From: Thermodesulfobacteriota bacterium
GTDB taxonomy: Bacteria > Desulfobacterota_D > UBA1144 > Nemesobacterales > Nemesobacteraceae
DNA length: 64,000 nucleotides
Reading direction: 5' to 3'
Assembly: GCA_965263275.1 (NCBI GenBank)
Contig: OZ253668.1
Span: 388,486 to 452,485 of the forward strand
Shown here: positions 7,930 to 30,020 of the stretch, piece after piece
Position numbering within the stretch: the first letter of the stretch is position 1
Layout: every line of letters begins with the position of its first letter
Translations under genes and position numbers: made by a program
Notes under the pieces: model-generated
What the model was told of the DNA's origin: nothing
What the model saw: only the letters and a program-made list of their open reading frames with translations
Databases searched by the model: none

Positions 7930-8145
7930 TAATCTCCTCCCTACCTATAGACTGAGCTATCATAAGATATCCGATCACTCCGACTGTGTAGCCATTTTCC
8001 ACTTGTTTCTGACCTTATATTAAGATTTGACAGATAGTGCTCGGAATCTTTCGCAAATTAAGAAATGAAGAAGGCGGCATTTCTTTATACATCCGGTTAA
8101 ATAAAACGTGGATTTACAAACTATTTAACAGGAGGAAACACCGCC

Positions 8146-8938: not shown

Positions 8939-8985
8939 TTGACAAAGCAGTATCTGGAATTTCTCAAGATCTGAGATCTCAGATA

Positions 8986-12282: not shown

Positions 12283-13874
12283 TCAAGAAGCCTTCCGCGC
12301 TCCTTCGCGTTAAAGGTTCCGTCCACGTGCTCTACCTCGCATCTGAGCGTCGCGCCATTTCCCTGTTTCTGTTCTTCCAGATATTCTGAAACCACCTCGG
12401 CAAATTCTTTTTTGATTAGTTCTGAGCTTTTTATGCTTTTACAGAACGCAACGGCTTGGCTCATAGGTTCTGTGTCGGCGAGCAGATCTTCTTTGAGGTC
12501 GAGCTTGGCCAGAGCCCGATAGCACCCGATGATTTTCGTTACGTCATCCAGAACGAGCTGGGAATCGGTGTCGGTCAGGCGTTTCTGTACGCTTTCGCTT
12601 ACCACCCCTTCGTCCATGGCCAGCACGATAACCTTATAATCGGTGAGGAGGTTATTCTCCACCGCGTATGAAAAGCTGACTTCGTGGAACGTTTCTCCGT
12701 AGAGTTCGGGGTCGTCCATGGAGCATAGGACCGCATCCGCTTCTTTGGCCTTTGTTTTTACCGAGTCGTGGAAAATACGGGGCGTAGCGGTCATGTAGAG
12801 GCGCTTTTTTCCTTTTATGAAATCCTGATAGTGAACCTTGACGAAATTGGATTCATCTTTATTGGCCAAAGTAGCACCGGTGGTGCGATGCGCTTCGTCA
12901 CAGACAATCAGATCAAACTCGGGGAGTCCGTAGTCCGCCTGCGCTTTGAAAATAACCTGTATTGAATGATAGGTAGAGAAAACAACGTTCATCCTGTCCT
13001 CGCTGCAAGCACGGGAAAATTCCTCTCCAAGTTTTTCTGCGTTGGTTGTGGCAGGATACGCAAGATCGTGAATGTTTATATCCGACAGGTCGTCTCTGGC
13101 TTTGCGTTTTCCGACATGAACATCGGAGCAGACGGCAAAAGACCTCAACTCCAGTTCCGCGTCATGGGTCCACTTGCGGATTGTCTGGGACATGAGGGAA
13201 AGCGAGGGGACAAGATATAAAACGCACCCGCCTTTTCCGACTATCTGCTCGGCAATCCTGAGGCTTGTCAGGGTTTTCCCCGTGCCGCACGCCATAAGCA
13301 GCTTGCCGCGGTCAGTTTCCCCGAATTTTTTTTCCACGGCCTTCAAGGCTTCCCGCTGATGCTTGTAAAGATGCTTTCCCTCCAGCAGCTTAATCTTGTT
13401 GTCTCTCGCGTATGTTTCCCAGTCTAACGGACTCAGCTCAAGGTCTCTCAGAGACAAACGTGTAACAGGAACAGTCTGGCCTTTGAGTGCATCCTCTGCA
13501 TGGTTGCTCCACTCAACTGCGGTCGAGTCGACAATAAGACGCATCTTAAAAGACTTCTTCCCCGAAGCAGTAAAAAAAGAGTCAATATCTTTTTTCTGTA
13601 TCTTGTAATTCTCTTGGTAGAACTTGCACTGAATGGCGCAGTGGCCTTCCTCACGGGCAAGCTTCGCGACAAGATCAATCCCAGTGTCGGTTTCATTCAG
13701 ATCTTGTGATCGTGCCCATCCTGCGTATGTCCATACCTGACTGAACAGGTCTGTGTACAAGGGATCGTTCTCAAGAAAATTCTTTACCAGGAGTTCAAAA
13801 TATTCTCCCTTCTCACGCTCTGTTCTGGAGTTTTTGCGATATCTGTCAAGAAGTTTCTGCAGTGCAGAGATCAT
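12225..13874 (-). CDS. Type ISP restriction-modification enzyme, N-terminal fragment (Mrr-like nuclease plus SF2 helicase N-lobe)
   Basis: The Mrr catalytic-like N-terminus (GEYFELLVKNFLEN, GIDLVA, CKFY) is followed by a helicase Walker A (CGTGKT) and DEAH box (VCDEAH). The frame terminates just after the G10 tract. Confidence 0.75.
   Translation of the reverse strand: MISALQKLLDRYRKNSRTEREKGEYFELLVKNFLENDPLYTDLFSQVWTYAGWARSQDLNETDTGIDLVAKLAREEGHCAIQCKFYQENYKIQKKDIDSFFTASGKKSFKMRLIVDSTAVEWSNHAEDALKGQTVPVTRLSLRDLELSPLDWETYARDNKIKLLEGKHLYKHQREALKAVEKKFGETDRGKLLMACGTGKTLTSLRIAEQIVGKGGCVLYLVPSLSLMSQTIRKWTHDAELELRSFAVCSDVHVGKRKARDDLSDINIHDLAYPATTNAEKLGEEFSRACSEDRMNVVFSTYHSIQVIFKAQADYGLPEFDLIVCDEAHRTTGATLANKDESNFVKVHYQDFIKGKKRLYMTATPRIFHDSVKTKAKEADAVLCSMDDPELYGETFHEVSFSYAVENNLLTDYKVIVLAMDEGVVSESVQKRLTDTDSQLVLDDVTKIIGCYRALAKLDLKEDLLADTEPMSQAVAFCKSIKSSELIKKEFAEVVSEYLEEQKQGNGATLRCEVEHVDGTFNAKERGRLLDWLSAEKSGGGWTKIHAVF
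12252..12261. repeat. C10 (coding strand G10) homopolymer tract at the frameshift point of the Type ISP RM gene; candidate phase-variation switch
   Basis: Ten consecutive C on the plus strand. The two RM ORFs overlap exactly here (12225-12282). A tract of 8 or 11 would fuse the frames. Confidence 0.8.
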
Positions 13875-14090: not shown

Positions 14091-14780
14091 TATGAGACGT
14101 AAAAGGCGTAATCATTCACCGGGGTTCAAGGCTAAGATAGCCCCGGCGGCAATCAGAGAAGACAAAACGGTTGCTGGGCTTGCCCGGCAGTATGATGTGC
14201 AGCCCAACCAGATTGCCGAGTGGAAGAAACAGTTGTTGGAGGGTGCCGAGAGTGTCTACTAGAGCGCCCGGGATAAAAAGGGTTCAGAACAGGCTCATAA
14301 GAGCGGGCGCGAAGAAAAAAGCTTGTGGATCACAATCACGATCTGAGCGTGGTAAGACAGTGCAAGCTGTTGGAGGTAAACCGCTCAAGTGTCTATTATT
14401 GTCCCAAGGTGTTATCGCGGGAGAATGGGAAACTGATGAGGCTTATCGATGAGATATATCTTGAGTACCCATTCAAGGGTCCCCGAAGGTTGCGGGACGT
14501 GCTTTTGGCAAGGCATGGCATCTGCGTGAATCGTAAGCGGGTGGCCAGGTTATACGGCTGCTGGGGCTTGCGGCATTACATCCCGGGCCCAAGACAACCC
14601 ACAGAGGGAAGGGACATAAGATATATCCTTATCTGCTTGGAGGAATGGACATAGAGCGTGTAAACCAGGTGTGGGCAACTGATGTGACCTTATATTCCTA
14701 TGTCCAGGGGGTTTGTGTACTTAGTGGCTGTCATGGACTGGCACTCAAGGAAGGTGCTGAGCTGGAGGGTGTCGAACACT
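14091..14780 (+). pseudogene. IS3-family transposase remnant (OrfA HTH fragment plus frameshifted OrfB N-terminus)
   Basis: 14091-14270 encodes MRRKRRNHSPGFKAKIAPAAIREDKTVAGLARQYDVQPNQIAEWKK (IS3 OrfA). 14325-14654 encodes the OrfB N-terminus. The integrase core (IERVNQVWATDVT...) then continues in another frame and stops. Confidence 0.7.
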
Positions 14781-15144: not shown

Positions 15145-16338
15145 GTGTTTTTGCGGTTGCTTTATCATACCGATTTAGTATCTTATTGTCTCATGATAGA
15201 CCATAACCATTTCGCAAATGAGCTTCTTCGTATCATTCAGGGGGCTTTACGTCTCGATATTGATAAAGTTAGGAATTATACTGATTTCTTGGCCGACAAT
15301 CTTGAGAAGGAGGGGGAAGAAACCTTGGCCAAGCGTTTGCGAAAACTGCTTGAGGAATCTGACCGCCAAATTCGTCCAACCGATGCTGAATTTGCAAATT
15401 TTCCTCCGGTAGACGGCGAAAGCCGATTTCACTTGGTTGAACTTGTTGATTGCCCAAAAGAACCTCCGCTTATACTGGCAGATGAACAGTGGGAAATTGT
15501 GCATGAATTTGCCAGCGTAGCCAAGAGCTATGCGCAAATTGACAATCGGGGTTACGATGCTTCTCTCAGCCTTGTTGTGCATGGGTCTCCCGGAACGGGT
15601 AAAAACCGACTTGTCCGATACTTGGCGCGAGAACTCGGCCTCGATCTGTACATCGCGCGCCTTGACGGTTTGATTTCTTCTTACCTTGGGAGCACAGCGA
15701 AGAATATCCGCGCTATTTTTGAATTCGCAGCTAAGCGTCCATGTGTGCTTTTTCTGGATGAGTTTGATGCAATCGCGAAGTTGAGAGGGGACTCTCAGGA
15801 ACTTGGTGAGTTGAAGCGAGTCGTAAACAGCTTTATCCAGAACCTCGATACTATCGGACGACAATCAATTGTTGTGGCAGCTACCAATCACGAGGAACTT
15901 CTGGATGCGGCAATCTGGAGGCGTTTTAGCTACAGGATTGAACTAACTCTTCCAGACGAGCAGATGCGCCACCGTATGTGGGTAAATTTCAGCCGACCTA
16001 TTGAATTCACGAAACGTGAACTGGAACTGCTTGTTGATTTGTCAGATGGATTCTCCGGTTCTGACATCCACGATGTGTGTGTTCGGTTAAACAGGTACGG
16101 GTTAAGTTCCAATAAACCTCCAAGCTTCAATAGAGCCTTTTTAACTATACAGAACATGTCAATAGGGGAAGTGACGAAGAACCGGATCGCGTCGCAGACA
16201 CGTGGAGTCAAGCCCGAAGAAGCGGCGTATATACTGAGAACCAGAAATCCACGATTGTACACCCTCTCGGCATTAGCGCATATCCTGGGTGTTTCAAAGG
16301 CAAAAGTGCATCGCTGGACATTAAAAAGGAGAAGTTAG
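15145..16338 (+). CDS. Classical-clade AAA+ ATPase (IetA-like); GTG start at 15145, or ATG at 15193
   Basis: Walker A GSPGTGKNRL, Walker B VLFLDEFD, and SRH/arginine finger ATNHEELLDAAIWRRF. The stop lies 2 nt before the S8 gene start. Confidence 0.75.
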   Translation: MFLRLLYHTDLVSYCLMIDHNHFANELLRIIQGALRLDIDKVRNYTDFLADNLEKEGEETLAKRLRKLLEESDRQIRPTDAEFANFPPVDGESRFHLVELVDCPKEPPLILADEQWEIVHEFASVAKSYAQIDNRGYDASLSLVVHGSPGTGKNRLVRYLARELGLDLYIARLDGLISSYLGSTAKNIRAIFEFAAKRPCVLFLDEFDAIAKLRGDSQELGELKRVVNSFIQNLDTIGRQSIVVAATNHEELLDAAIWRRFSYRIELTLPDEQMRHRMWVNFSRPIEFTKRELELLVDLSDGFSGSDIHDVCVRLNRYGLSSNKPPSFNRAFLTIQNMSIGEVTKNRIASQTRGVKPEEAAYILRTRNPRLYTLSALAHILGVSKAKVHRWTLKRRS

Positions 16339-16340
16339 AC

Positions 16341-18656
16341 ATGAATGAGAAACTGCTGCCTATAAAACTCATTATGCCCAAGCAGGGAAGTGAACGACGC
16401 ATACCGGGTGGTCGCGGCCCTAAAAAGCCATTTCGTCCGATTGATTCCACCTACAGGAACCGATTGTCCAATCAGATTAGGGCAATCCGTAAAAGTTTGC
16501 CAAAACAAATTAAAAATGTCGGTGCTGCTCCTGTCCGGGTTTCTCTGATTCCCCAAGCTATAGCTAAGACACACCGTCCCGAAAAACTGTTTTCAGAGAG
16601 CACCTGTCCGATCATTGGCGCGGGTGGTCTTGGAGAATTGTTTATTAAGGCAACGCCTGCCGGACTTGATGAGTTGGACAACATTGTAGAGGAAGGCGAT
16701 TCTGATCAACTTGTTAAGGAGCTATCTTCTGTGCAGAGCATTGAACCCGTTACTCCGAATTCTCGTCTTGGAAACACATCCACGAGGGAGTTGCTACAAA
16801 ACAGTCCACGCGGAGAAAACGGGTTTATAGTGCGAGTTCGTCTGTTTGATTTTGGCCGAGATGGGGACCAGGAAAAGTTAATGGCTGATTTTAAGCAGAC
16901 ATGTAGAAAACGCCGTATTGCAATTACCCAAGACGGTTATTCTTTAAATAGCTTCATCTACGCGGCTGAATGCAGAAATACAAACGATGTTAAGAGTATT
17001 GCTGATGTAGTGGGAGTTCGTTCAATTCACTATATGCCGTTGATTCAAACCGTACGTCCTAATATCTCCAATACTGAGAAGTTACCTCTTCTAATCGACC
17101 GTACCGAATACTCTGAAGATGTCCCGGTGGTAGTGGTAGTTGACAGTGGGATTTCAGATGAATTGCCTGTATTGGAAAGCTGGGTGCTTGGTCGCGAATC
17201 ATCTGTAGCGCCACCGTATCAAAATACTGACCACGGAACATTTGTTGCCAGTTTGATTTGTTGGGGTCATATACTGAATCCGACTTTAAAGGGACTAAAT
17301 TCTGACCCATGTGGGGTTTTTGACCTGCAAATCATTCCGAACAGCGACCCTGAAAAAGGAGACGTGGAGTCTTTACTCGAATCTGAGTTTTTATGGTCTC
17401 TGGAGAAATCGCTCAAACAGTGGGCGAACAAATACAAAGTATGGAATTTGTCACTTAACACGGATGCAGTTTGTTTGATTGACGAATTCTCGCCACTTGC
17501 GGAAGAACTTGATAATCTGCAGGAAAAGTATCAGGTATCGTTCGTTATCAGCGCGGGAAACTATATATCTCGACCACTTCTGGATTACCCTAGAACTCAG
17601 GAACAGGAAGAAAAGGGCCGTATAACTTCGCCAGCTGATAGCGTGCTTGGCATAACTGTTGGTGCCATCTCCCATGTTGATCACAAGAAATCGGGGGTGA
17701 TTAAAAACCATCCCTCTGCGTTTTCCCGTAACGGTAGTGGGCCAAACTATGTGATTAAACCCGATCTTGTTCATTACGGAGGGGCGTGTTCCACTGACCT
17801 GTCGCACATAGCCGGGATTCATTCAATTAATGGCAGGAAATCTGTCGAAGTTTTCGGAACCAGTTTTTCGGCTCCGCTCGTATCGCGAACATTGGCACAG
17901 ATATATCATTATGTAACTCCTTCTCCTTCTCCGGTGTTGGCAAGAGCTCTGCTTACACATCACTCGCGCGATCCGCGAACGGATGACCGAGTTCCTGACG
18001 GGGAGGAAAAATGCTTCGGATTCGGCCGGCCCGCGCCGGTTCCGTACTGTCTAGAGTGCATGCCATATTCGTCAACGCTTGTATTTGAAGATGTGCTCCG
18101 CCCAGGCTACTTTCTTGAATGGAACAATTTTCCCTATCCGCCATCTCTGAAGCGCGACGGTCGTTATTATGGCGAAATATGGATGACTGTAGCTTTTGTG
18201 CCAGCGAGAGGGGCCCGCTGGGGGACCGAATATTGCGAAACTCATATTGATGCAAGTCTTGGAGTTTATTACGAACAAGTTTCACGCGAAACTGGAGAAG
18301 TCAAAACAAAATTCCGTGGACTGGTACCACCTGAGCACAAAAACCCAGGCCTTCTTTATGAGTCGTCTCAAGTTGCTCAGTTACGCAAGTGGGCGCCTGT
18401 TCGAACCTACCATGGCAAAATGGGTGATAAAGGCGAAAGAGGGTTGCAATGGAGACTAAAGCTAAGGTTGTTGACGCGTCACGGTATAGATAACGAGGAA
18501 ACTTTCAAACCCCAGCCGTTTTCTTTGATCATAACTGTTGCGGACCCACAGAAAAAGGCCCCTGTCTATGATGAAATGTCTCGAATGGTACGGAATCGTT
18601 TTCAATCTGAGAATCTTACAATCAGAGTTCCTGCGCGTATTAGAGCGCGAGGGTAA
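16341..18656 (+). CDS. Subtilisin-like S8 serine peptidase with long N- and C-terminal extensions (IetS-like)
   Basis: Catalytic triad motifs VVVVDSGI (Asp), DHGTFVASLI (His), oxyanion ISAGN and GTSFSAPLVS (Ser). AGGAG RBS 8 nt upstream; tightly coupled to the AAA gene. Confidence 0.8.
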   Translation: MNEKLLPIKLIMPKQGSERRIPGGRGPKKPFRPIDSTYRNRLSNQIRAIRKSLPKQIKNVGAAPVRVSLIPQAIAKTHRPEKLFSESTCPIIGAGGLGELFIKATPAGLDELDNIVEEGDSDQLVKELSSVQSIEPVTPNSRLGNTSTRELLQNSPRGENGFIVRVRLFDFGRDGDQEKLMADFKQTCRKRRIAITQDGYSLNSFIYAAECRNTNDVKSIADVVGVRSIHYMPLIQTVRPNISNTEKLPLLIDRTEYSEDVPVVVVVDSGISDELPVLESWVLGRESSVAPPYQNTDHGTFVASLICWGHILNPTLKGLNSDPCGVFDLQIIPNSDPEKGDVESLLESEFLWSLEKSLKQWANKYKVWNLSLNTDAVCLIDEFSPLAEELDNLQEKYQVSFVISAGNYISRPLLDYPRTQEQEEKGRITSPADSVLGITVGAISHVDHKKSGVIKNHPSAFSRNGSGPNYVIKPDLVHYGGACSTDLSHIAGIHSINGRKSVEVFGTSFSAPLVSRTLAQIYHYVTPSPSPVLARALLTHHSRDPRTDDRVPDGEEKCFGFGRPAPVPYCLECMPYSSTLVFEDVLRPGYFLEWNNFPYPPSLKRDGRYYGEIWMTVAFVPARGARWGTEYCETHIDASLGVYYEQVSRETGEVKTKFRGLVPPEHKNPGLLYESSQVAQLRKWAPVRTYHGKMGDKGERGLQWRLKLRLLTRHGIDNEETFKPQPFSLIITVADPQKKAPVYDEMSRMVRNRFQSENLTIRVPARIRARG

Positions 18657-18888
18657 GGATGAGATTACTGCGTAGCAAGATGGACTGTCTAAGAGAGCTA
18701 GGAAAAGTTAAGAAGGATATTGGCTTTGAACCTATCAAATAATCTTATGGCGATATTCTTGGACGGACCCCAGGTTGGCTCAGCGGGGGGTTTTGTAACG
18801 TTATTGATTCTTTAGCAGACGAAAAAAGTTCTAGCGAAGTTTATTTGATTGAATTTATGAATTTGGAAATTCCGCGGGAAGTAAGCAT

Positions 18889-19500
18889 ATGGAAATCAGC
18901 CTTAATTTTACTAACTATAAACCAGGATTTTTAATTTGTACGATTGGAATACTCTGGCTTCTTTGTTATTGGGCATTGTCCTTTCTTTGGCAGCATGGGG
19001 TTTTTCAAGGAATTGCTCCAACTCTGCTTGTCGCATCTTTCTTGGGATTTTATGACAAGCTGTTATGGAAATTCCCTGTGTTTAGTCTTCTTGTAAAAGT
19101 CCCTGATTTAAACGGAGAGTATGAAGGTACAGTTGAATATCACTGGGACGATAAAAACCAAAACAAAACCTGTAATCTCCAAATTCGACAGACGGCTTCT
19201 TTCATTAAAGTAAAGTGTTCTTTTCAAAAAGAAGGGGAGAACGAGACTTCATCTGAAAGCAAGAAAGCTTTTTTTGATACTGATGAGGTAGGCGGCTGCT
19301 CCCTCTATTTTTACTATCAGAATAGAGGTTCTTGCAAGGATGGCGATACGTTGGACCAGCATGATGGAATGACAATTCTTCAGGTGATCGAGGAGGGTAA
19401 AGATATAAAACTAGAAGGTTCTTATTTTACGAATCGCAACCCACAGACAAAGGGGCGAATTAAAGTTTCAAAAATCATTTTACCGGAGGTAAACAAATGA
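18889..19500 (+). CDS. CBASS effector candidate: two N-terminal TM helices plus a ~110-aa C-terminal domain (Cap15-like)
   Basis: Two hydrophobic helices (LICTIGILWLLCYWALSFLW; IAPTLLVASFLGFYDKLLW) followed by a soluble domain. The stop overlaps the cyclase start (ATGA). Confidence 0.5.
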   Translation: MEISLNFTNYKPGFLICTIGILWLLCYWALSFLWQHGVFQGIAPTLLVASFLGFYDKLLWKFPVFSLLVKVPDLNGEYEGTVEYHWDDKNQNKTCNLQIRQTASFIKVKCSFQKEGENETSSESKKAFFDTDEVGGCSLYFYYQNRGSCKDGDTLDQHDGMTILQVIEEGKDIKLEGSYFTNRNPQTKGRIKVSKIILPEVNK

Positions 19501-20450
19501 ATACCCACAAATTATTTGAGAAGTTCAATGGGGTTATAAGATTGACTGACTCAAAGAGAGAAAAGTTAAAAACCAGCCGTAAAGCGTTAAGAGATAAGAT
19601 AAACAAATTTTTCGAAGAAAAGCGTTTGAAAAAACCTGAATTCCATCCTCAAGGCTCTTTTCCGTTACAAACCAATCTTAACCCTATCAGAGCGGAGGAA
19701 GACGGGGTTATCAAGGAAAAGTATGATATGGATGATGGAGTTTATTTTATCAGCCCTGAATCAGATCGGAAGACCCCTGAGACTTACCATTACCGCATAA
19801 AAGATGCGGTTGAAGGGCATGCGTCGGACGTAATTGATAAAAACACTTGCGTAAGAGTTGTTTTTGCTGACGGACACCACATCGATTTGCCCGCTTACTG
19901 GCTGGAAGATGGAGACAGTGTTCCGCAGTTGGCCCACAAGTCGGAAGGTTTTATAGATAGTGACCCAGTAGAATTCATGGACTGGGTTAGGGAAAAAATA
20001 TCTGAAACGAACTCTACTGGGCAATTGAGGAGAATTATTCGTTACTTAAAAGCGTGGAAAGACTATCGGGAAAACAAGAATTCGAGTCTCAAACTTCCTT
20101 CCGGTTTTATTCTTACCATTTTGGCTTGTAATCATTACAAGCCAAGTGACCGAGACGACTTGGCTTTATGCGATACCGTCGAGAGTATCAGGAATGAATT
20201 GGATTGGAACTTTGTGTGCTACCGTCCCACAACTCCTGAAGGTGAAGAGTTGTTAGGAAAATACGACTCGGAGAAAGTTCTGCGGGAGTTAGAGAAATTT
20301 GTTGAAAATGCCCAGAAAGCGATAGATTCTGATTGCGGGGAAGAATCTTCTAAATATTGGAGAAAAGTGTTCGGAGATCGTTTCCCTCTGGGAGATAAAA
20401 GTAAAAAATCTTTTAAAACATCTGTAGAAAAACCATGGACATCATTTTAA
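19497..20450 (+). CDS. cGAS/DncV-like nucleotidyltransferase (CD-NTase, CBASS cyclase)
   Basis: Pol-beta NTase motifs QGSFPLQT (G-S) and DMDDGVYF ([DE]hD), a third acidic residue in ADGHHIDLP, and the YLKAWKD motif. 317 aa. Confidence 0.7.
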   Translation: MNTHKLFEKFNGVIRLTDSKREKLKTSRKALRDKINKFFEEKRLKKPEFHPQGSFPLQTNLNPIRAEEDGVIKEKYDMDDGVYFISPESDRKTPETYHYRIKDAVEGHASDVIDKNTCVRVVFADGHHIDLPAYWLEDGDSVPQLAHKSEGFIDSDPVEFMDWVREKISETNSTGQLRRIIRYLKAWKDYRENKNSSLKLPSGFILTILACNHYKPSDRDDLALCDTVESIRNELDWNFVCYRPTTPEGEELLGKYDSEKVLRELEKFVENAQKAIDSDCGEESSKYWRKVFGDRFPLGDKSKKSFKTSVEKPWTSF

Positions 20451-21097
20451 CGAATGAAGATATTGAAGAAGTAAAGGAGGTATTCCCACAATTAAATTGC
20501 GAAGTGCAGAATGGCCGCATCTGGGGAACTTTGGACTTTTGCTGTTGGTATGACAACAGTAGCGAAGAATTAGAGCATAATTCACAGCATCGGGAAGCTA
20601 TATATGATTCTTACGAAATAGAAATTAAATTTGGCAGAAAAGACGAATTTGATTTTCCGAGAGTTTATGAACCATCTGAGAAGATATTAAAGTTTTCAAC
20701 TGATTCAGAACTAAAGCTGGAAGACTTCCACGTCAACGAAAAAGATTGTAACAGTTGCTGCTTAGGTATCTTTCCTGATTACCGATGGCAAGGCGCGACA
20801 GATTTTATATTAACAAAAGTCGTTCCATTTTTTTACTGGCAATCCCATAGAAGAATAAAAGGAGAAGAACCTTGGGAAGGATATGCCCATGGGTACAAAG
20901 GTATTGAGAATGCTTTAGCTTCAGTATCTCGTAGAAATAAAGGTCGTAACCGTAATATTTTATGTCTTTGTAATAGTGGTAAGAAATACAAAAAATGTTG
21001 CTATCAGAAAGACTCAATATTGCGATCGAGCTTGTTGAAAGCAAAGATGGATAGGAGAAAACTTAACACTAATCGCTCCGGCAAAGATTCTCAGTGA
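20435..21097 (+). CDS. Cys-rich protein with a C-terminal SEC-C zinc motif, co-operonic with the CD-NTase; function unknown
   Basis: CLCNSGKKYKKCC matches the SecA C-terminal SEC-C motif (CxCxSGxKYKxCC). Additional Cys clusters are FCCWYD and CNSCC. The start overlaps the cyclase end by 16 nt. Confidence 0.5.
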   Translation: MDIILTNEDIEEVKEVFPQLNCEVQNGRIWGTLDFCCWYDNSSEELEHNSQHREAIYDSYEIEIKFGRKDEFDFPRVYEPSEKILKFSTDSELKLEDFHVNEKDCNSCCLGIFPDYRWQGATDFILTKVVPFFYWQSHRRIKGEEPWEGYAHGYKGIENALASVSRRNKGRNRNILCLCNSGKKYKKCCYQKDSILRSSLLKAKMDRRKLNTNRSGKDSQ

Positions 21098-21213
21098 TAG
21101 CCAACTCCTCTAAACACCAGTTCAGCCAGTTTTTAAGTGGCGAGGAGAAACGAAAGGATCAATGTTGTATTTCATAAAACGGCTACTCGGAAACAAGACC
21201 TCTGGAAACTGCC

Positions 21214-21615
21214 ATGGCTGCACAGATCAGGATTAACAAGCGAAACGTCTACCGCTATCAAGTACGACGGCGATCTGCCCCCGGAGTGGTATACGCGGAC
21301 CGCAAGACCGCCATCGTGAAGGTGCTAGGAAAGCGATTCCTCGAAGAGTATGTACTCCACTGTAAGTCGCACACGGCCTATGAATATCGTCCGTCCATGG
21401 AAGTCTTCATTGAACCCAAAATCGGCGCGAGAAAGGTGACCGAGATTCTGCGGAGCGATATCGCTGAATTGCATCATGGCATGCGAAAGACACCCTATCA
21501 GGCCAACCGGACGCTTGGCATTCTTTCCAAGATGCTCAACCTCGCGGAGATGTGGGGCCTACGGTCGGACGGCTTGAACTCCATAACGCATGGGAACCAA
21601 GAAAGGTACAGATAA
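21214..21615 (+). pseudogene. Tyrosine recombinase (phage integrase) N-terminal arm/SAM-like domain only; catalytic domain absent
   Basis: ARKVTEILRSDIAELHHGMRKTPYQANRTLGILSKMLNLAEMWGLR matches integrase N-terminal domains. The ORF ends after 133 aa with no RHRY catalytic region. Confidence 0.6.
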
Positions 21616-22619
21616 TGACCGACTTATTCATCCTCGGTGCGGGTTTCTCCAAGGCCATCAATTATAGAATGCCAACAATGGACGAGCTAAGTTCTGCCGT
21701 CCTAATAAACTTGGAAAATGTCGGCTTGCGCGTACCGGATGCATTACACGATCTTGGCAACAATATCGAACTTTGGATGACTTACTTATCTCAAGCTCAA
21801 CCTTGGCTCAAAGAGTCTGATAACCACTTCAACAAGGCTTTTGCTGGCCAACTACGCAAACAAATAGAGGAGATTATCCATGACCGAACAACGATTGCGT
21901 CTCAGTCTAACCCACCAGTTTGGTTGAACCGTTTGATTAGGTCGTGGCATGAACAACGTGCCACAGTAATCACGCTGAATTACGACACTCTAATTGAAAG
22001 GGCGAGCCGGGAATTGCAGATTACGGATAAGATAAAGCGCATCATGGCTGACCAGATGTATCCCCCATATTTTGCCAATATAGCGTCAAGATCAGGAGTC
22101 GGCCTTTTTGGCGAAGGAAAAGTAGATACCTTTTTATACTTAAAGCTTCATGGTTCCATAAATTGGTACTATTCTGGCAGAGATAATTTCTACGGTGAAA
22201 CAATTTTTTACGCAGATGTACCTCCTCTCGGTTCTGATTATTCGGATCAAGAAAAGGCATTAAGTGCACTATCTAGAGATAAAGAGACGTTAATCATCCC
22301 TCCGGTAAATGAGAAGACCATATACTTCAGCAATGAAACTGTAAAAGGACTTTGGCACGACGCTAGTGTTGCTCTTTCCAACGCGACACGAGTGTTTGTG
22401 ATAGGGTACTCATTACCGATTTCAGATCTTGGTATGCAGTTATTTTTAATCAACAATCAACCTGTTCCGCAAACCCCCGTCTACGTGATAGATACGTGTG
22501 CAGAAGTTGCAAAACGCTACGAGTCCTTGTTACCAAAATTGCAAATAAAGACAGATTTTTCACACGATCAGAATCCTGTCGAAAAATTTAGCGAGCATTA
22601 TCCAAATTTAGGGAATTAG
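21615..22619 (+). CDS. Standalone SIR2-family protein (SIR2_2-like), candidate NAD+-depleting defence effector
   Basis: Rossmann LFILGAGFS, ITLNYDTLIE and the catalytic-His motif YLKLHGSINWY. Its ATG overlaps the TAA of the integrase fragment (TAATG). Confidence 0.7.
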   Translation: MTDLFILGAGFSKAINYRMPTMDELSSAVLINLENVGLRVPDALHDLGNNIELWMTYLSQAQPWLKESDNHFNKAFAGQLRKQIEEIIHDRTTIASQSNPPVWLNRLIRSWHEQRATVITLNYDTLIERASRELQITDKIKRIMADQMYPPYFANIASRSGVGLFGEGKVDTFLYLKLHGSINWYYSGRDNFYGETIFYADVPPLGSDYSDQEKALSALSRDKETLIIPPVNEKTIYFSNETVKGLWHDASVALSNATRVFVIGYSLPISDLGMQLFLINNQPVPQTPVYVIDTCAEVAKRYESLLPKLQIKTDFSHDQNPVEKFSEHYPNLGN

Positions 22620-23056
22620 ATAGGAAAGTTGAGAAATTTATAGATACGGGTCGGGAGGCACAAAAGTGTGAAGAACAATTTTTCTAGACCTAGTCATGAT
22701 AACTCGACCTCCTTAACCAGAAATGTTTTTACTGTCTTCAGCATAACCGGTGTTTTTCAGGATAATTGTCGCATATTATAACATGACGCGCCCTGGTTTT
22801 TACCTCCTCTGAAGTTCTCTCCAATCTCATAATCATAGTCATTCATCAAGCGGCTTCGTCCTTTCTCCGATCCGGATTAAGCCACACTTCCTCTACAGGC
22901 GACCAGTTGCGATAACGTTCTAAATTATTCAATTGTAAGGTCCCCGCAGACTATTTAGAATAGAACTGCTGTATTGGTTATTTCCTGTGACTATAACAGA
23001 TAATGGAAATCTTCACCACGATGAAGCACACATAAGAATTTCTGGCTAGCTATTAT

Positions 23057-23089
23057 GTATATAGTTCCCTAGCGGGGGGAACTATATAC
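23057..23089. other. Perfect 13-bp stem / 7-nt loop hairpin in a 640-bp ORF-free spacer
   Basis: gtatatagttccc-tagcggg-gggaactatatac; the arms are exact reverse complements. Confidence 0.6.
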
Positions 23090-23260
23090 TTTGTTAGCCA
23101 TATGGACGTGTTTATTTGTTTCTTCCGTCAGGCGTTGAAAAGTTGGAAGCCACGTGCCTTCGTTTCGGAGAACGAGGGTGATTCATCGTTCTTACCCTCC
23201 AGTGCTTTTTGTGGTATTATACGCCCTGCAACAATCGATACTTAATCAAAACTTTCTTAA

Positions 23261-23665
23261 ATGACTTTTACCCAATCTATCTCAACTTGCTTCTCAAAAT
23301 ATGTTGACTTCTCAGGTAGAGCGCCGAGAAGCGAATTTTGGTGGTGGCAACTTTTTTTCTTTTTAACACTATTTCTAACAAATTTTACTGACATCTTAAT
23401 ATTTGGAATACCATCATATGACTATATTGTTTACTATTGGTGGTACACACCGTCAGCCAGCCCGCTCACAATTATGTGGATATTAATAACATTTTTACCA
23501 ACTATAGCCGTTAATATAAGAAGATTACATGACGCTGGATATAGTGGTTGGTATTACCTCGTATCCTTTATACCGATAATTGGTATTTTCTGGTTGATTC
23601 TTTTGTGGTTATTAAAATCTGAAGAAAAAGACAACAAATATGGAACTTATCAAAACGCCCCTTGA
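23261..23665 (+). CDS. DUF805 family inner-membrane protein
   Basis: SGRAPRSEFWWW...NIRRLHDAGYSGWYYL...IPIIGIFWLILL and a C-terminal NKYG match DUF805 signatures. Confidence 0.65.
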   Translation: MTFTQSISTCFSKYVDFSGRAPRSEFWWWQLFFFLTLFLTNFTDILIFGIPSYDYIVYYWWYTPSASPLTIMWILITFLPTIAVNIRRLHDAGYSGWYYLVSFIPIIGIFWLILLWLLKSEEKDNKYGTYQNAP

Positions 23666-23766
23666 AAAAGAATCGGGGTTGTGCAGATACTTAAAATCCT
23701 TTTTGATGCCCCGTTCGGCAAGGATATGGTCTTCAAGCGAAGCAAGCTAATGTCGAGGTACGGGAT

Positions 23767-24924
23767 ATGAGCGTTCGGCTGGTCGATGCGGAATGGGGCC
23801 GGGAGCTTAAGGATGCTATTTGCACGCACCCCACTGAGGTATGCATCGTTTGCCCATTCATCAAGAAGCGTGCTCTTGAGCGTCTCCTGTCGCACCGGCC
23901 TTGTGGTGTTCGGGTGATTACCCGATTCAATCTGAAGGATTTCGCTGAAGGTGTCAGCGATGTGGGAGCCTTGCGAATGCTCCTCGATGCCGGGGCCAGT
24001 ATCCGTGGTATCCGGCACCTCCATGCCAAGTTGTATCTCTTCGGGGAAAGCCGAGCGATCATTACTTCGGCCAACCTAACGGAGGCTGCCCTAACCCGAA
24101 ACTGGGAGTTTGGCGTGGTCGCTGATGATATAGCCGTCGTTGCGACCTGCCGGGATTATTTCGAAAAGCTTTGGCGACGCGGAAACTCGGATATATCCAG
24201 CGATCTTCTCGATAGCTGGGAAGAAACAGTTACCCGTCATCATCTTGCTGGCGGAAGGCCCAGCCATGCGAGAGGGCTCGATGATTTTGGCGCGGATGCG
24301 GGGCCTGCAGCCACATTGCCCTATACCCTTCCCGCTGTCGTAGCGGATACAGATCAAGCCTTCGTCAAGTTTCTCGGCACGAATAATAATCGGGTGCCGG
24401 TTTCTTTCGCCACTATCAAGGAGATCAAGAATTCGGGCTGCCATTGGACCCTCGCCTATTCAAAGCGCCCTAGAATAGTCAAAGACGGTGCGGTCATGTT
24501 TATCGCGCGGCTCACGGATGAGCCCGACATTCGAATTTTCGGTCGCGCTATCGGTATGAAGCATCATCCGAGCCGGGACGACGCGTCACCCGAGGACATT
24601 GAGCGTCGCTCGTGGAAAGAGAAGTGGTCGAGGTACATCCGCGTGCATCACGCTGAGTTCGTTGCTGGAACTATGGCAAACGGCATCTCGCTGAACAATT
24701 TGATGGATACGCTTGAAAGCAATTCATTTAAGCGGACTCAGGATAATGCGGTTGCTGGTACCGTCAACACGGATCCTCGGCGTGCATATATGCGGCAAGC
24801 ACATGTCGAACTTTCTTCGCAAGGCACTTCCTGGCTTGGCGAGTGCCTTCAGGCGGCGTTTGACGAACACGGCAAAGTCCCGCAGGGCATGCTCGAGGAA
24901 CTCGACTGGCCTACACTGTCATGA
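23767..24924 (+). CDS. PLD-superfamily (HKD) nuclease domain fused to an uncharacterised ~250-aa C-terminal domain
   Basis: Single HKD-like motif HAKLYLFGESRAIITSANLT (HxK...TSxN). High-GC (~58%) gene, in contrast to the low-GC neighbours. Confidence 0.55.
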   Translation: MSVRLVDAEWGRELKDAICTHPTEVCIVCPFIKKRALERLLSHRPCGVRVITRFNLKDFAEGVSDVGALRMLLDAGASIRGIRHLHAKLYLFGESRAIITSANLTEAALTRNWEFGVVADDIAVVATCRDYFEKLWRRGNSDISSDLLDSWEETVTRHHLAGGRPSHARGLDDFGADAGPAATLPYTLPAVVADTDQAFVKFLGTNNNRVPVSFATIKEIKNSGCHWTLAYSKRPRIVKDGAVMFIARLTDEPDIRIFGRAIGMKHHPSRDDASPEDIERRSWKEKWSRYIRVHHAEFVAGTMANGISLNNLMDTLESNSFKRTQDNAVAGTVNTDPRRAYMRQAHVELSSQGTSWLGECLQAAFDEHGKVPQGMLEELDWPTLS

Positions 24925-25508: not shown

Positions 25509-27284
25509 ATGTCTTTACATGTAGATATAATCCCCAACCGCAAGAGCAGACCCACCATACTCCTGCGCGAGGCGCGGCGCGAAGGAAAAAGAATCAGAAA
25601 GAAAACGCTGTGCAACCTCACCCACGTGCCCTCGATAATCGTTGACGGCATACGAGCCATGCTAAAAGGCGGGGTGGTGTATAAAGACCTCAAGGAGGCT
25701 TTTTCCATAAAGCGCACGTTGCCCCACGGACATGTCGTCGCCGCGCTTGGTGTCTCCAGGGATCTGGGGCTGGATCGCATTCTGCACAGAAAAAACAGCC
25801 GCGCGCGGGATCTGGCTCTGGGGGCAGTTGTCTTGGGGGTGCTGAAGCCCAATTCAAAGCTGGCGGCTTCCCGGGGCCTGTCCCCCGAGAGCGCGAGCAC
25901 GAGTCTGGGAGCTGTTATGGGTCTGGGGCCGGTTACGGGCAACGAGATGCTCTCCATGCTTGACTGGCTTGTGGAGCGCCAGAGGTGGATTGAGCGAAGC
26001 CTGGCCAACCGTCATCTCAAGGGAGGCACTCTTGTGCTCTACGACGTGACCTCAAGCTACATGGAGGGACAGAGCTGCCCGCTGGCTTTCTTCGGTCACA
26101 ACAGAGACAAAAAGAAGGGGAAGAAGCAGATCGTGTACGGGCTGCTTTGCTCCGCCGACGGCTGTCCGGTGGCCGTGGAGGTGTTTTGCGGCAACACCGG
26201 GGACCCGGCGACGGTGGGAGCTCAGGTTGAGAAGATTCAGCGGCGCTTTGGGGTTGAGAACCTGGCGTTGGTCGGAGACCGCGGGATGATCACCACCGCG
26301 CGCATCAGGGAGGATATCGAATCTTGCGGTCTTCAGTGGATATCGGCACTCAAGTCAACCGACATCCGTAAGCTGCTGAAAAAGCCTGAGGACGGCGAAG
26401 CGCCGCTTAGCCCCGAAGCTTTGGTTCCCGACGGGGTCGGTGAGATAGTCAGTCCCGAGTTTCCGGGCGAGCGTCTGATAGTGTGTCTTAACCCTCGTCT
26501 GAGGGAGCAGAGGGCGCGCAAGCGCGAAGAGCTTCTGGTTTCCACGGAGCGGATTCTTGAGGACATCAAAAAAGCGGTCCGCCGCAAAGGCTCCTCGCTG
26601 CGAGGCAAAGACAATATCAATCGGCGCGTGGGACGCGAAGCGAACCGCAGGAAGGTGGAGAAGCACTTTGAGATCACCGTTACGGACGATGATATCTCAT
26701 GGTCTCGTGACCGGGAGAGAATAGAGGCGGAGGCCCGTCTTGACGGCATCTACATCATACGAACCAGTCTTGACGGTTCGGCTCTTGGAGCGGCGGGGGT
26801 GGTATCGGCGTACAAGAGCCTCTCTGTGGTGGAGCGGGCGTTTCGTTCGATCAAGACCACTTCTTTGCGGATACGTCCCTTCTACGTGTACAGCGAACCT
26901 CACGTGCGCGGACATGTTCTGCTCTGCATGCTCGCTTATTACGTTCAGTGGCACCTTCGCAGGCTGCTGGCGCCGCTATTGTTTGAGGATTGTGACCGCG
27001 AGGGGGCGGAGAGGAAGCGGAGGACGCCGGTGGAGAGAGCCATGGTATCTGACAGCGCCAAGGCGAAAAGCGACACGAAAAAGACTCCTGAGGGGTTCTG
27101 CGTGCATAGCTTCGAGACGCTTATGGAGGATCTGGCCACCTTCTGCCTCAATGAAGTGGCGCTGCCTGGGGATTCTGAGCATGGTTTCGTCGTTATGCCC
27201 GAACCGACGCCCCTGCAGAAAAAAGCGTTTGAATTGCTAGGCATAGACCTCGGCAAATTTGTTCCCAGTAAACTGACAGGTTGA
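25509..27284 (+). CDS. IS1634-family (IS4 superfamily) DDE transposase
   Basis: 591 aa. LVLYDVTSSYMEG, LVGDRGM and YKSLSVVERAFRSIKTTSLRIRPFYV are characteristic of IS1634-type transposases. Confidence 0.7.
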   Translation: MSLHVDIIPNRKSRPTILLREARREGKRIRKKTLCNLTHVPSIIVDGIRAMLKGGVVYKDLKEAFSIKRTLPHGHVVAALGVSRDLGLDRILHRKNSRARDLALGAVVLGVLKPNSKLAASRGLSPESASTSLGAVMGLGPVTGNEMLSMLDWLVERQRWIERSLANRHLKGGTLVLYDVTSSYMEGQSCPLAFFGHNRDKKKGKKQIVYGLLCSADGCPVAVEVFCGNTGDPATVGAQVEKIQRRFGVENLALVGDRGMITTARIREDIESCGLQWISALKSTDIRKLLKKPEDGEAPLSPEALVPDGVGEIVSPEFPGERLIVCLNPRLREQRARKREELLVSTERILEDIKKAVRRKGSSLRGKDNINRRVGREANRRKVEKHFEITVTDDDISWSRDRERIEAEARLDGIYIIRTSLDGSALGAAGVVSAYKSLSVVERAFRSIKTTSLRIRPFYVYSEPHVRGHVLLCMLAYYVQWHLRRLLAPLLFEDCDREGAERKRRTPVERAMVSDSAKAKSDTKKTPEGFCVHSFETLMEDLATFCLNEVALPGDSEHGFVVMPEPTPLQKKAFELLGIDLGKFVPSKLTG

Positions 27285-27420
27285 TTTTACGGATCTCCCC
27301 GCTACCATTGAGCAATCCGTGGATTTGTATAGCGCGACAAACAAGATTGAACGGTTGCGACAAACAAGATTGAACTTTCATGTCGCAGCGAAAGAGACAA
27401 TACCGGGATAATTCAGGGGA

Positions 27421-27445
27421 CGCAACCCCGGAATCCGGGGTTGCG
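27421..27445. other. Perfect 11-bp stem / 3-nt loop hairpin just downstream of istB
   Basis: cgcaaccccgg-aat-ccggggttgcg. Confidence 0.55.
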
Positions 27446-27460
27446 CGGGTGGGGTGGGGG

Positions 27461-28288
27461 TCAGCCGGATGTGTCGCTTTCGGTGGCGAACTTCGCGGGT
27501 CTTCCCTGTTTTTTCTTCTGTTCCATGGCTTGACGGCGTCTGTAGCTCTCCACGTTCATCTCAAGTATCACGCAGTGATGCACAAGGCGATCCACCGCTG
27601 CCACCGCGGTGTTTTCGTCAGGAAACACCTTTGTCCATTCGGTAAACGGCTGATTGGCGGTAATGAGCACGGAACGTTGCTCATAACGGACCGATATCAG
27701 TTCGAACAGCACGCTTGTTTCGGCGTGATCTTTGCGCACGTAGGCCAGATCGTCAAGAATCAGCAGGTCGTAGCGGTCAAGCCTGTTGAGCATATTCTCA
27801 AGGGACAGTTCCCTTTGAGCCGTCTGGAGCTTCTGAACAAGATCCGTCGTACGGGTGAACAGCACCCGTTTCTCCTTCTCCACCAGAGACAAGCCGATTG
27901 CCGAAGCCAGATGACTCTTGCCCGCCCCCGGAGGGCCGAAGATTATCACATTGTGTCCGCCTCTTAGCCACGAATCGTTTGAAGCCAGGGCCATGACCGT
28001 GGGTTTGGATATAGTGGGAACCGCGTCAAAGTCGAAGTTCTCAAGGGTTTTTCCTGGAAGAAGACGGGCTTCGCCCAAGTGGCGGCGTATCCTGCGCCGT
28101 TGCCGCTCGGCAAGTTCAAGATCCGCGAGAGTTGCGAGCAGCCGGGCCGCGGGCCACCCCTCGGTATCCGCCCGTTCGGCGAACCGCTCCCACATCTGCC
28201 TGATCGCGGGCAGCCGAAGTTCGCGGAACATGAGGTCAAGGTCGGCTTTTCCGATCTCCACCACCTTTTCATTGGGTTTCGTATTCAT
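27461..28288 (-). CDS. istB: IS21 helper ATPase IstB
   Basis: Walker A IIFGPPGAGKSHLA and Walker B LLILDDLAY; DnaC-like AAA+ typical of IstB. Confidence 0.85.
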   Translation of the reverse strand: MNTKPNEKVVEIGKADLDLMFRELRLPAIRQMWERFAERADTEGWPAARLLATLADLELAERQRRRIRRHLGEARLLPGKTLENFDFDAVPTISKPTVMALASNDSWLRGGHNVIIFGPPGAGKSHLASAIGLSLVEKEKRVLFTRTTDLVQKLQTAQRELSLENMLNRLDRYDLLILDDLAYVRKDHAETSVLFELISVRYEQRSVLITANQPFTEWTKVFPDENTAVAAVDRLVHHCVILEMNVESYRRRQAMEQKKKQGRPAKFATESDTSG

Positions 28289-29787: not shown

Positions 29788-30020
29788 CGTGAACCTCCCG
29801 CTCGATAGATTGAGCGGGGTTCTTACCCGGCCGGTCGTGAACACCGAAAGAAATTCAAAAAAATCTGGGGAGATGCTGTCTGAAACGGAAGGAGGGCGTA
29901 GCCCGACTGGAGTTTCAGACAGCATCTCCCCAGAGTCTCATCTTGTTTGTCGCAAAAGTTCAAAGTTGATTGACGCAGGATATTGTTAAATGAAGTTCCG
30001 TTTAAGTTAGTAGAGAAGCG

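Follow-up and report, generated by a model that had tools for sequence, protein, structure and literature searches.

The model system for E2-CBASS, also termed type II-short CBASS, is CdnG-E2 of Serratia marcescens (PDB 8HSB; bioRxiv 10.1101/2022.05.25.493364; PMC12948482). Its cyclase SmcGAS belongs to clade G and comprises about 400 aa, of which a C-terminal helix together with a three-stranded sheet recruits the E2 protein SmE2 of about 160 aa. The mechanism depends on a conserved C-terminal glycine of the cyclase, and in SmcGAS linkage was lost when this residue was replaced (G406V, G406L) (bioRxiv 10.1101/2022.05.25.493364; PMC12948482). Residues H87, C101 and H152 of SmE2 were reported to be conserved only in E2 proteins of E2-CBASS (bioRxiv 10.1101/2022.05.25.493364). 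As about 26% of the cyclases of E2-CBASS are not members of clade G (bioRxiv 10.1101/2022.05.25.493364; PMC12948482), a clade G cyclase has to be regarded as a subclass feature and not as a requirement for E2-CBASS. A second group of described systems is type II CBASS with the E1-E2 fusion protein Cap2 and the JAB protein Cap3, exemplified by Cap2-CdnD of Enterobacter cloacae (PDB 7TO3). The active-site histidine pair was reported to be absent from Cap2 E2 domains (bioRxiv 10.1101/2022.05.25.493364).

Here we describe a CBASS operon located in a window of 64,000 nucleotides on contig OZ253668.1 (GCA_965263275.1) of a Thermodesulfobacteriota bacterium. Unlike the Cap2- and Cap3-containing systems, the operon carries neither an E1 nor a JAB gene.

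Organisation of the operon

Three overlapping open reading frames of the plus strand, spanning positions 18889-21097, constitute the operon (Table 1); their positions and lengths in the ORF list (203, 317 and 220 aa) agree with the three overlapping genes of the initial annotation. The first two genes share 4 nt (ATGA), and 16 nt are common to the second and the third. Searches with Pfam, PADLOC and NCBIfam found no E1 adenylation and no JAB/Cap3 domain in the operon or in the flanking ORFs, a promoter and terminator scan of 18400-21500 gave nothing above shuffle expectation and no tRNA was present in the window. The same three-gene cassette was found again in other genomes with unrelated flanks. 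The operon lies in a dense defence island, in which several IS elements occur together with an integrase fragment and a Type ISP restriction gene that is split.

Table 1. Positions of the genes, domains and putative functional sites of the operon within the window
Feature	Position	Strand	Evidence
Cap15-like effector gene (203 aa), N-terminal membrane region and C-terminal cyclic-dinucleotide receptor beta-barrel	18889..19500	+	Pfam, PADLOC
Effector transmembrane region, residues ~12-56	18922..19056	+	Hydrophobicity, PADLOC '2TM' models aligning from residue 7
Effector Cap15 cyclic-dinucleotide receptor domain, residues 69-194	19093..19470	+	Pfam PF18153, profile positions 1-121 of 122
CD-NTase gene (317 aa), CdnB-like	19497..20450	+	PADLOC, NCBIfam, PDB relative
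CD-NTase catalytic residues G53-S54, D77-x-D79, D130	19653..19886	+	Read from sequence
CD-NTase C-terminal tail, residues 300-317, proposed E2 recognition/processing site	20394..20447	+	C-termini from 14 loci
E2-like CBASS accessory gene (220 aa) with C-terminal SEC-C tail	20435..21097	+	PADLOC E2 models
Putative E2 active-site triad H99 (20729-20731), C109 (20759-20761), H152 (20888-20890)	20729..20890	+	Family conservation
SEC-C zinc-knuckle motif, residues 173-190 (C177, C179, C188, C189)	20951..21004	+	Pfam SEC-C

The Cap15-like 2TM effector proposed by the initial annotation was confirmed by matches of the gene 1 product to Pfam Cap15_CD_rec (E = 6.9e-21, residues 69-194) and to 16 PADLOC '2TM effector' models (best E = 1.7e-32). 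Its N-terminal segment is strongly hydrophobic (residues 12-34; Kyte-Doolittle, 19-residue windows > 1.5), and a weaker second hydrophobic stretch can be read from the sequence at about residues 38-56. Described Cap15 effectors, two-TM beta-barrel proteins (PF18153), likewise combine a transmembrane region with a receptor domain and are encoded directly upstream of the cyclase, whereas the pairing with an E2-containing operon sets the window effector apart from them. The Cap15-like effector is also one of the differences from the S. marcescens system.

The product of gene 2 matched the PADLOC cyclase model PDLC00774 (E = 4.3e-109), the Pfam families DncV-like_NTFase and SMODS and the NCBIfam model NF041078 'CBASS cGAMP synthase' with 219.6 bits at a cut-off of 150. 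The closest solved relative (PDB 7LJO; E = 1.2e-43, residues 4-301 aligned) is BfCdnB, also designated CdnB04 (PMC10442399). The GS and DxD motifs, which had been recognised already from the bare sequence, are located at G53-S54 and D77-x-D79 and are completed by D130. Equivalent columns are invariant in nine natural fusions of a CD-NTase with an E2 domain (G53, S54, D78, D80 and D131 in fusion P0067). The catalytic residues of the window cyclase are intact, and the enzyme is predicted to be active.

The third gene and its SEC-C tail

The product of gene 3 was matched by six PADLOC models for CBASS E2 or E1-E2 proteins, the best being PDLC00872 (E = 1e-20, residues 6-204). Across 125 diverse family members, no column is invariant other than H99, C109 and H152; judging from their order and spacing, these residues probably correspond to H87, C101 and H152 of SmE2. 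Of 15 related loci compared, 13 have a CdnB-like CD-NTase gene directly upstream of the E2 gene, so that homologues of the third protein do occur beside other CD-NTases, as the initial annotation had suggested to check. The two genes overlap by 14-16 nt in all five gene-called loci checked (L001-L004, L006). Moreover, 15 representatives were classified by length and position as CD-NTase-E2 fusions. All nine fusions scanned with Pfam gave matches to SMODS or DncV NTase domains, and eight of them also had a SEC-C match. For all three genes of the operon, the HMM matches lie far beyond what chance would produce. Gene 3 is accordingly assigned, by sequence relationship, as a putative ubiquitin-E2-fold regulator of CBASS.

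Because the PADLOC E2 models, the His-Cys-His triad, the linkage with CD-NTases and the natural fusions identify gene 3 as an E2, we regard the operon as type II-short CBASS and not as minimal CBASS with a novel gene. It contains a CD-NTase with a GS...DxD...D active site and an adjoining effector with a cyclic-nucleotide receptor domain, as expected for CBASS. As in E2-CBASS, a stand-alone gene for a predicted UBC-fold E2 with a cysteine and two histidines adjoins the CD-NTase gene, and E1 and JAB are absent. Two features of E2-CBASS are missing, namely a glycine near the C-terminus of the CD-NTase and a clade G cyclase with an extended recruitment tail. Very probably, the operon represents a complete type II-short (E2-only, E2-CBASS) anti-phage CBASS, which would act by the mechanism proposed below. 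The locus is therefore an ordinary instance of E2-type CBASS, and our result is mostly a correction. Nevertheless, the departures from the studied model are real: the cyclase is short, CdnB-like and ends with KPW-x-x-x instead of glycine, and the E2 carries a very basic zinc-knuckle tail.

With this tail, the window E2 comprises 220 aa, whereas the shorter SmE2 has no such extension. The SEC-C zinc motif noticed at the C-terminus by the initial annotation, C177-L-C-N-S-G-K-K-Y-K-K-C-C189, was verified with Pfam PF02810 (E = 4e-07; 30.2 bits at a gathering score of 20.4), and profile searches matched the SEC-C peptides of SecA and YchJ in the PDB (E = 1e-5 to 2e-6). The CxC-x8-C[CH] pattern with its SGKKYK core is present, the motif is invariant in alignment A1 and metal binding is predicted. 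The basic tail of 55 residues contains 18 lysines and arginines as compared with three aspartates and glutamates. SEC-C tails were found in 119 of the 150 best representatives of the E2 clade (about 80%) and are, as far as these sequences indicate, typical of the clade closest to the window E2. Outside the foundational classification papers, a full-text search found no paper discussing a SEC-C tail on CBASS E2 proteins.

The SEC-C domains at the C-terminus of SecA and in YecA and YchJ (PF02810) share the consensus CxCxSGKKYKKCC, the four metal ligands and the flanking lysines with the window protein, in which, unlike in these three, the domain is appended to an E2 enzyme. In SecA, the domain interacts with SecB as well as with ribosomes and can carry either Zn or Fe (bioRxiv 10.1101/613315), and the C-terminal SEC-C copy of YchJ provides a redox-switched, lysine-rich DNA-binding dimer interface (PMC13377102). 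Another SEC-C-bearing defence protein is Rugutis, a lactococcal single-gene antiphage protein (PMC11381338). Its SEC-C motif, however, is N-terminal, the remaining fold is unrelated and a CD-NTase partner is lacking.

The C-terminal tail of the cyclase

The CdnB-like cyclase of the window differs from SmcGAS at the very end at which the latter engages its E2. Only 18 residues follow the core, which leaves no room for the helix and the three-stranded sheet recruiting SmE2, and the conserved C-terminal glycine is absent as well. BfCdnB, the closest solved cyclase, has '...RFHLAPD' at this site, and the window tail following FGDRFPLG remained unaligned. This tail starts after the conserved FGDRFPLG, continues with a variable linker and ends with K312-P313-W314 and three further residues (...VEKPWTSF). 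Among 108 stand-alone homologues, 87 contain P[WYF] within the last 14 residues, nearly all of them as W followed by 2-3 residues. The residue after W314 varies between L, S, T, A, I and R, and a terminal glycine is not conserved, with G among the last three residues in only 3 of the 108 sequences. The glycine of FPLG is disfavoured as a processing site, since L003 and several homologues lack it (FPVD, FPSS, FSCS).

Related motifs were identified in other family members. The natural fusions keep ATKP[YF]x 10-20 residues ahead of the E2 domain, the 364-aa cyclases of a sister group carry F-Y-G-[ED], which resembles Y405-G406-E407 of SmcGAS, and locus L017 carries KPVG. Together with a conserved aromatic residue at position -4, the KP[YF]A motif of the fusions, the FYG[ED] of the sister group and the KPVG of L017 suggest that the window cyclase has a homologous site devoid of glycine. 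An AF2 model of the fusion P0067 was of moderate quality (pLDDT 78, pTM 0.54), and the pLDDT was 72 around the ATKPYA motif as compared with 45-64 in its flanks. The ATG of the E2 gene, which lies in the overlap, falls on the conserved W at position -4, so that conservation of this residue may in part reflect a coding constraint.

Proposed mechanism and alternative explanations

By analogy to the S. marcescens model system, the E2 would be a cysteine transpeptidase that uses C109, aided by H99 and H152, and has the flexible tail at the C-terminus of the cyclase as its substrate. Cleavage at or beside the conserved KPW motif would release the last 2-3 residues, and the cyclase would stay bound to the E2 through a thioester or isopeptide linkage. 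Such conjugation is expected to prime or activate the cyclase, which upon phage infection would produce a cyclic dinucleotide; its sequence matches the NCBIfam cGAMP-synthase model. Binding of the signal by the Cap15-like effector would then permeabilise the inner membrane and thereby abort infection. More speculatively, the SEC-C tail might add targeting or sensing by contacting nucleic acid, the ribosome or an anionic membrane, or by metal- or redox-controlled self-association.

One can go further and suppose that SEC-C-tailed E2 proteins with short CdnB-like cyclases (KP[WY]-x-x-x, no glycine) constitute a mechanistically distinct branch of E2-CBASS, although we consider this rather unlikely. 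The E2 would process or conjugate the cyclase at a non-glycine site and the basic Zn/Fe knuckle would serve as an infection-sensing or localising module, which might bind phage nucleic acid or ribosomes or might gather cyclases by redox- or metal-switched dimerisation. If true, this would mean that a receptor for the substrate or for a signal is built into a bacterial E2. In any case, the SEC-C tail is absent from the one biochemically studied E2-only system, and the glycine is present in its partner cyclase. The SEC-C-tailed clade may thus serve as a test bed for the generality of the peptide-exchange, poly-cGASylation model and as a way to learn the role of a SecA-type metal knuckle on an E2.

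The initial annotation had described the operon as minimal (type I) CBASS with an unrelated, uncatalogued Cys-rich SEC-C protein, possibly a new sensor or an antitoxin-like modulator. This impression is understandable because nothing but the SEC-C motif of gene 3 is detected by Pfam and NCBIfam and a homologue is named just 'SEC-C domain-containing protein' by NCBI and UniRef. In addition, no solved E2 could be detected at sequence level, even with profiles, and the Foldseek search suggested at that time yielded nothing stronger than a marginal match to UFC1 (E = 0.02), both of which count against the assignment of gene 3 as an E2. The PADLOC E2 models, however, do place the protein in a catalogued Cap family, an outcome which the initial annotation itself had named as speaking against its proposal. 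The idea is thereby largely refuted, and we give it next to no credence; a regulatory role in cyclic-nucleotide signalling stands in general terms, but it is not of a new kind, as the mechanism class (E2-CBASS) has already been described. Since general annotation labels this E2 family by SEC-C only, type II-short CBASS of this clade will be misread as type I with an unknown gene, and defence-specific HMMs or structures are needed to spot it. Decay of the operon into a non-functional remnant is very improbable, too. Deletions in the close relatives L001 and L008, which removed the effector or the effector together with the cyclase, as well as the transposon-ridden island with its IS elements, integrase fragment and split Type ISP restriction gene, would fit such a fate, but all three window ORFs are full length in comparison with their homologues, none of the catalytic and metal-binding residues is lost and the coupled overlaps are intact.

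Other explanations accept the E2 and differ in what it does to the cyclase. It might mainly restrain its partner in a covalent, inactive or sequestered adduct which SEC-C anchors to ribosome, membrane or nucleic acid until infection releases it. For type II CBASS with Cap2 and Cap3, conjugation of the cyclase to PspA has been proposed to prevent activation (PMC11153139), the repeated effector loss in L001 and L008 suggests a costly system in need of tight control, and SEC-C elsewhere is a binding module for SecB and the ribosome in SecA (bioRxiv 10.1101/613315) and for DNA in YchJ (PMC13377102). Sequence data fit restraint and activation alike, yet E2-mediated poly-cGASylation activates cGAS in the sole E2-only system studied, and we consider restraint the doubtful choice. 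Even less plausible is a non-covalent scaffold without any conjugation, in which the KPW tail would serve for docking only or simply result from the overlap of the genes, and SEC-C would carry the actual regulatory function. The missing glycine, the variable residue after W and the start codon of the downstream gene, an ATG embedded in the cyclase gene that forces W at position -4, are in line with a scaffold. The fusions, however, keep KP[YF]x although they are free of the overlap constraint, a homologous processing site is suggested by the FYG[ED] of the sister-group cyclases and by the KPVG of L017, and invariance of the catalytic cysteine and both histidines over 125 diverse sequences would be unexpected for a pure scaffold. 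Priming or activation of the cyclase by E2-mediated conjugation is the explanation we retain.

The effector is the variable part of the related loci: Cap15 is encoded in most of them, upstream of the cyclase also in L004-L007, L009, L010, L012 and L013, whereas L003 and L017 carry a patatin. The S8 peptidase IetS, encoded upstream, was called in L001 together with the CD-NTase as one protein of 996 aa. Its sequence runs from residues 1-651 of IetS through the 31 C-terminal residues of Cap15 to the intact start of the cyclase. A designed IetS-cyclase fusion was rejected, as a deletion had taken out the effector. A functional link between IetS and the cyclase was rejected as well; the adjacency of IetAS represents island synteny among close relatives because L004, L006 and L007 contain the cassette without IetAS.

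Identity of the three operon genes

The third gene of the operon had been described in the initial annotation as a Cys-rich, uncatalogued addition to a minimal CBASS. Pfam and NCBIfam indeed recognise the SEC-C motif alone (residues 173-190), at the C-terminus where it had been placed. However, six PADLOC models of CBASS E2 or E1-E2 proteins match gene 3, the best of them (PDLC00872, E = 1e-20) aligning residues 6-204 with profile positions 4-200 of 216. As this model spans the E2 core and the tail, the subfamily, tail included, is already part of the CBASS catalogue of defence finders. Ubiquitin-conjugating enzymes carry the signature HPN...C-L-D-I-L, which the block H99-x-N...S-C108-C109-L-G-I-F-P of gene 3, invariant in an alignment of 20 homologues, resembles. 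Over 125 diverse relatives, H99, C109 and H152 are the only invariant columns. In SmE2, the E2 of the Serratia marcescens CdnG-E2 model system, covalent linkage and C-terminal processing require both C101 and H87, bond interconversion requires H152, and the two His residues were reported to be conserved only in E2s of E2-CBASS (bioRxiv 10.1101/2022.05.25.493364). As independent lines of evidence, profile matches, signature, triad and gene linkage show, at the level of sequence, that residues 1-165 constitute a CBASS E2. The CBASS assignment made initially is therefore retained, while the PADLOC matches and the invariant triad remove the uncatalogued extra gene.

No E1 or JAB gene was detected in the operon or the flanking ORFs by Pfam and PADLOC scans. 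The locus is best classified as a new example of a published class, E2-CBASS or type II-short, for which 616 operons were counted in one source and 406 in another.

Gene 1 matches Pfam Cap15_CD_rec (residues 69-194, E = 6.9e-21) and 16 PADLOC "2TM effector" models, which substantiates its first reading as a Cap15-like 2TM protein. Its residues 12-34 are strongly hydrophobic and are followed by a second, weaker hydrophobic stretch. In the Cap15 family, the effector has a beta-barrel that binds the cyclic dinucleotide, and it acts by disrupting the inner membrane. Gene 2, correctly annotated as a CD-NTase with GS/DxD motifs, matches Pfam DncV-like_NTFase and SMODS, the PADLOC cyclase model PDLC00774 (E = 4.3e-109) and NCBIfam "CBASS cGAMP synthase" (219.6 bits, cut-off 150); the catalytic residues G53-S54, D77-x-D79 and D130 are present. 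The nearest solved structure, 7LJO (E = 1.2e-43), is BfCdnB of clade CdnB04 (PMC10442399).

The positions and lengths initially given for the three overlapping plus-strand genes were exact. Genes 1 and 2 overlap by ATGA, genes 2 and 3 by 16 nt. The GC content of the cassette (0.38-0.40) lies below that of the flanks (0.45-0.58), as expected of acquired DNA.

Gene linkage and the SEC-C tail

A search for gene 3 homologues beside CD-NTases, suggested initially as a check, adds gene linkage to the evidence for an E2: a CdnB-like gene lies directly upstream of the E2 in 13 of 15 related loci compared. One exception, L008, is a deletion remnant; in the other, L015, the upstream ORF ends in ...SKPWCV and is too divergent to score. 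The overlap between cyclase and E2 measures 14-16 nt in all five gene-called loci checked (L001-L004, L006). Effectors are mostly Cap15-like, with patatin in L003 and L017. Moreover, 15 cluster representatives are single polypeptides of cyclase and E2; among nine scanned with Pfam, SMODS or DncV NTase was found in all and SEC-C in eight. Thermodesulfobacteriota MAGs are the closest relatives (82% and 79% E2 identity).

A profile of the E2 core without the tail, searched against 1.84 billion cluster representatives, matched 507 proteins at E ≤ 1e-3, of which 222 reached E ≤ 1e-10. A C-terminal CxC...C[CH] knuckle occurs in 119 of the best 150 matches, which makes the SEC-C tail the rule in this E2 clade and not a peculiarity of the locus; among these 150, it is found in 115 of the 134 proteins long enough for a tail. 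C177, C179 and C188 are each at least 90% conserved in the 125-sequence alignment. The 55-residue tail of gene 3 is very basic (18 K+R versus 3 D+E). The one E2-only protein characterised biochemically, SmE2, comprises about 160 aa without a SEC-C tail, whereas gene 3 encodes 220 aa with one. Nothing on SEC-C together with CBASS or SMODS was found in the full texts searched, whose coverage excluded two foundational classification papers. The SEC-C motif of SecA binds Zn or Fe as well as SecB and ribosomes (bioRxiv 10.1101/613315), and the C-terminal motif of YchJ forms a dimer interface that is Lys-rich, redox-switched and DNA-binding (PMC13377102). By analogy, one can hypothesise that the E2 tail serves tethering, nucleic-acid binding or switched self-association.

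Some E2 relatives (P0064, P0087, P0144) contain two tandem knuckles in the tail; they recall YchJ, whose two SEC-C motifs lie one at each end. In L013 of Persicirhabdus sediminis (5001-5621, WP_200311359.1), the E2 homologue is entered in NCBI and UniRef as 'SEC-C domain-containing protein' and the adjoining cyclase as 'CBASS cGAMP synthase'; standard pipelines thus miss the E2 of this clade.

The cyclase terminus and a proposed mechanism

Part identities, catalytic residues and gene linkage are established here; the features of remaining interest are the SEC-C tail and the cyclase end lacking Gly, which a large clade shares. E2-CBASS cyclases were reported to be long and mostly of clade G (73.65%), with a C-terminal helix and three-stranded sheet that recruit the E2 and with conjugation at a conserved Gly. 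In contrast, the product of gene 2 is CdnB-like, comprises 317 aa and has only 18 residues after the conserved FGDRFPLG, ending in VEKPWTSF. Among 108 stand-alone homologues, 87 carry P[WYF] within the final 14 residues, nearly always W plus 2-3 residues, about a dozen more show [PL]-L-W plus 3 residues, and Gly occurs among the final three positions in only 3. W is followed by a variable residue (L, S, T, A, I or R). Part of the W conservation is a coding constraint, since the ATG that starts the E2 gene is embedded at the W codon (CCATGG). Fusions, free of this constraint, nevertheless keep ATKP[YF]-[A/S/Y/C] 10-20 residues ahead of the E2 domain, and F-Y-G-[ED] in a sister group of 364-aa cyclases and KPVG in L017 echo Y405-G406-E407 of SmcGAS, the S. 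marcescens cyclase. From these motifs we infer that the aromatic residue may mark a homologous site where the E2 docks and processes the tail, releasing a short peptide. The chief doubt about the mechanism concerns the non-Gly residue, since linkage in SmcGAS was lost with G406V and G406L, G406A being tolerated.

By analogy with S. marcescens, C109 of the E2, aided by H99 and H152, would catalyse peptide exchange on the cyclase tail and keep the cyclase as a thioester or isopeptide adduct, and conjugation would switch on nucleotide synthesis. As in the Cap15 family, the cyclic dinucleotide would then bind the effector beta-barrel, and inner membrane disruption would lead to abortive infection. 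The E2 may act on the cyclase either as an activator or as a safety catch.

The surrounding defence island

The operon lies inside a dense defence island.

Features of the defence island (window positions)
Feature	Position	Strand	Size	Match or remark
Protein adjoining SMC-like ATPase	3377-4630	+	417 aa	PDC-M30A and PDC-M41A
SMC-like ATPase	5764-7929	-	721 aa	PDC-S46 over full length, E = 6.5e-272
Type ISP/IIG restriction-modification enzyme	8986-13874	-		Two overlapping ORFs; PADLOC PDLC03597 positions 2-544 and 547-1640 of 1646
Insertion sequences flanking defence genes	14171-14654 and 25509-31568
IetA (AAA ATPase) and IetS (S8 peptidase)	15145-18656	+	397 and 771 aa	Complete anti-phage pair, directly upstream of CBASS
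Gene 1, effector	18889-19500	+	203 aa
Gene 2, CD-NTase	19497-20450	+	317 aa
Gene 3, E2-like	20435-21097	+	220 aa
Stretch downstream of CBASS	21214-24924	+
Integrase N-terminal fragment	within 21214-24924	+	133 aa
SIR2-like protein	within 21214-24924	+	355 aa	PADLOC SIR2, E = 3.6e-12
DUF805 membrane protein	within 21214-24924	+
PLD-family protein	within 21214-24924	+	385 aa	Full-length DrmC model, E = 4.2e-146
DUF262-type 'Orf5/HEC-06' defence protein	34892-36583			E = 2.1e-164

PADLOC identified IetA (E = 1.5e-120) and IetS (E = 0), their NCBIfam matches both being under the curated cut-offs. The split of the Type ISP/IIG enzyme may reflect a sequencing error or a frameshift that made the gene a pseudogene. 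The PDC-S46 and PDC-M30A/PDC-M41A proteins are candidate defence systems. No other DISARM genes were found beside the DrmC-like protein among the ORFs scanned. The insertion sequences comprise an IS4-type transposase (591 aa), IS21 IstA and IstB, a DDE_Tnp_1 transposase and, upstream of IetA, putative transposase-like fragments.

Adjacency of IetAS and CBASS was found in the close relatives L001, L005 and L008 and not in L004, L006 and L007. L007, a Thermodesulfobacteriota MAG, has a second, divergent CdnB-like cyclase gene (8070-8951, minus strand, 31% identity) about 3 kb downstream of its cassette, which may belong to another CBASS in the same island. In L001 (2026-5016), IetS residues 1-651 are in frame with the last 31 Cap15 residues, followed by an intact cyclase; in L008 (4604-5587), E2 residues 42-220 come after the C-terminus of IetS, effector and cyclase both being lost. 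These IetS-CBASS junction deletions in two Thermodesulfobacteriota-type loci represent recurrent loss of the toxic effector.
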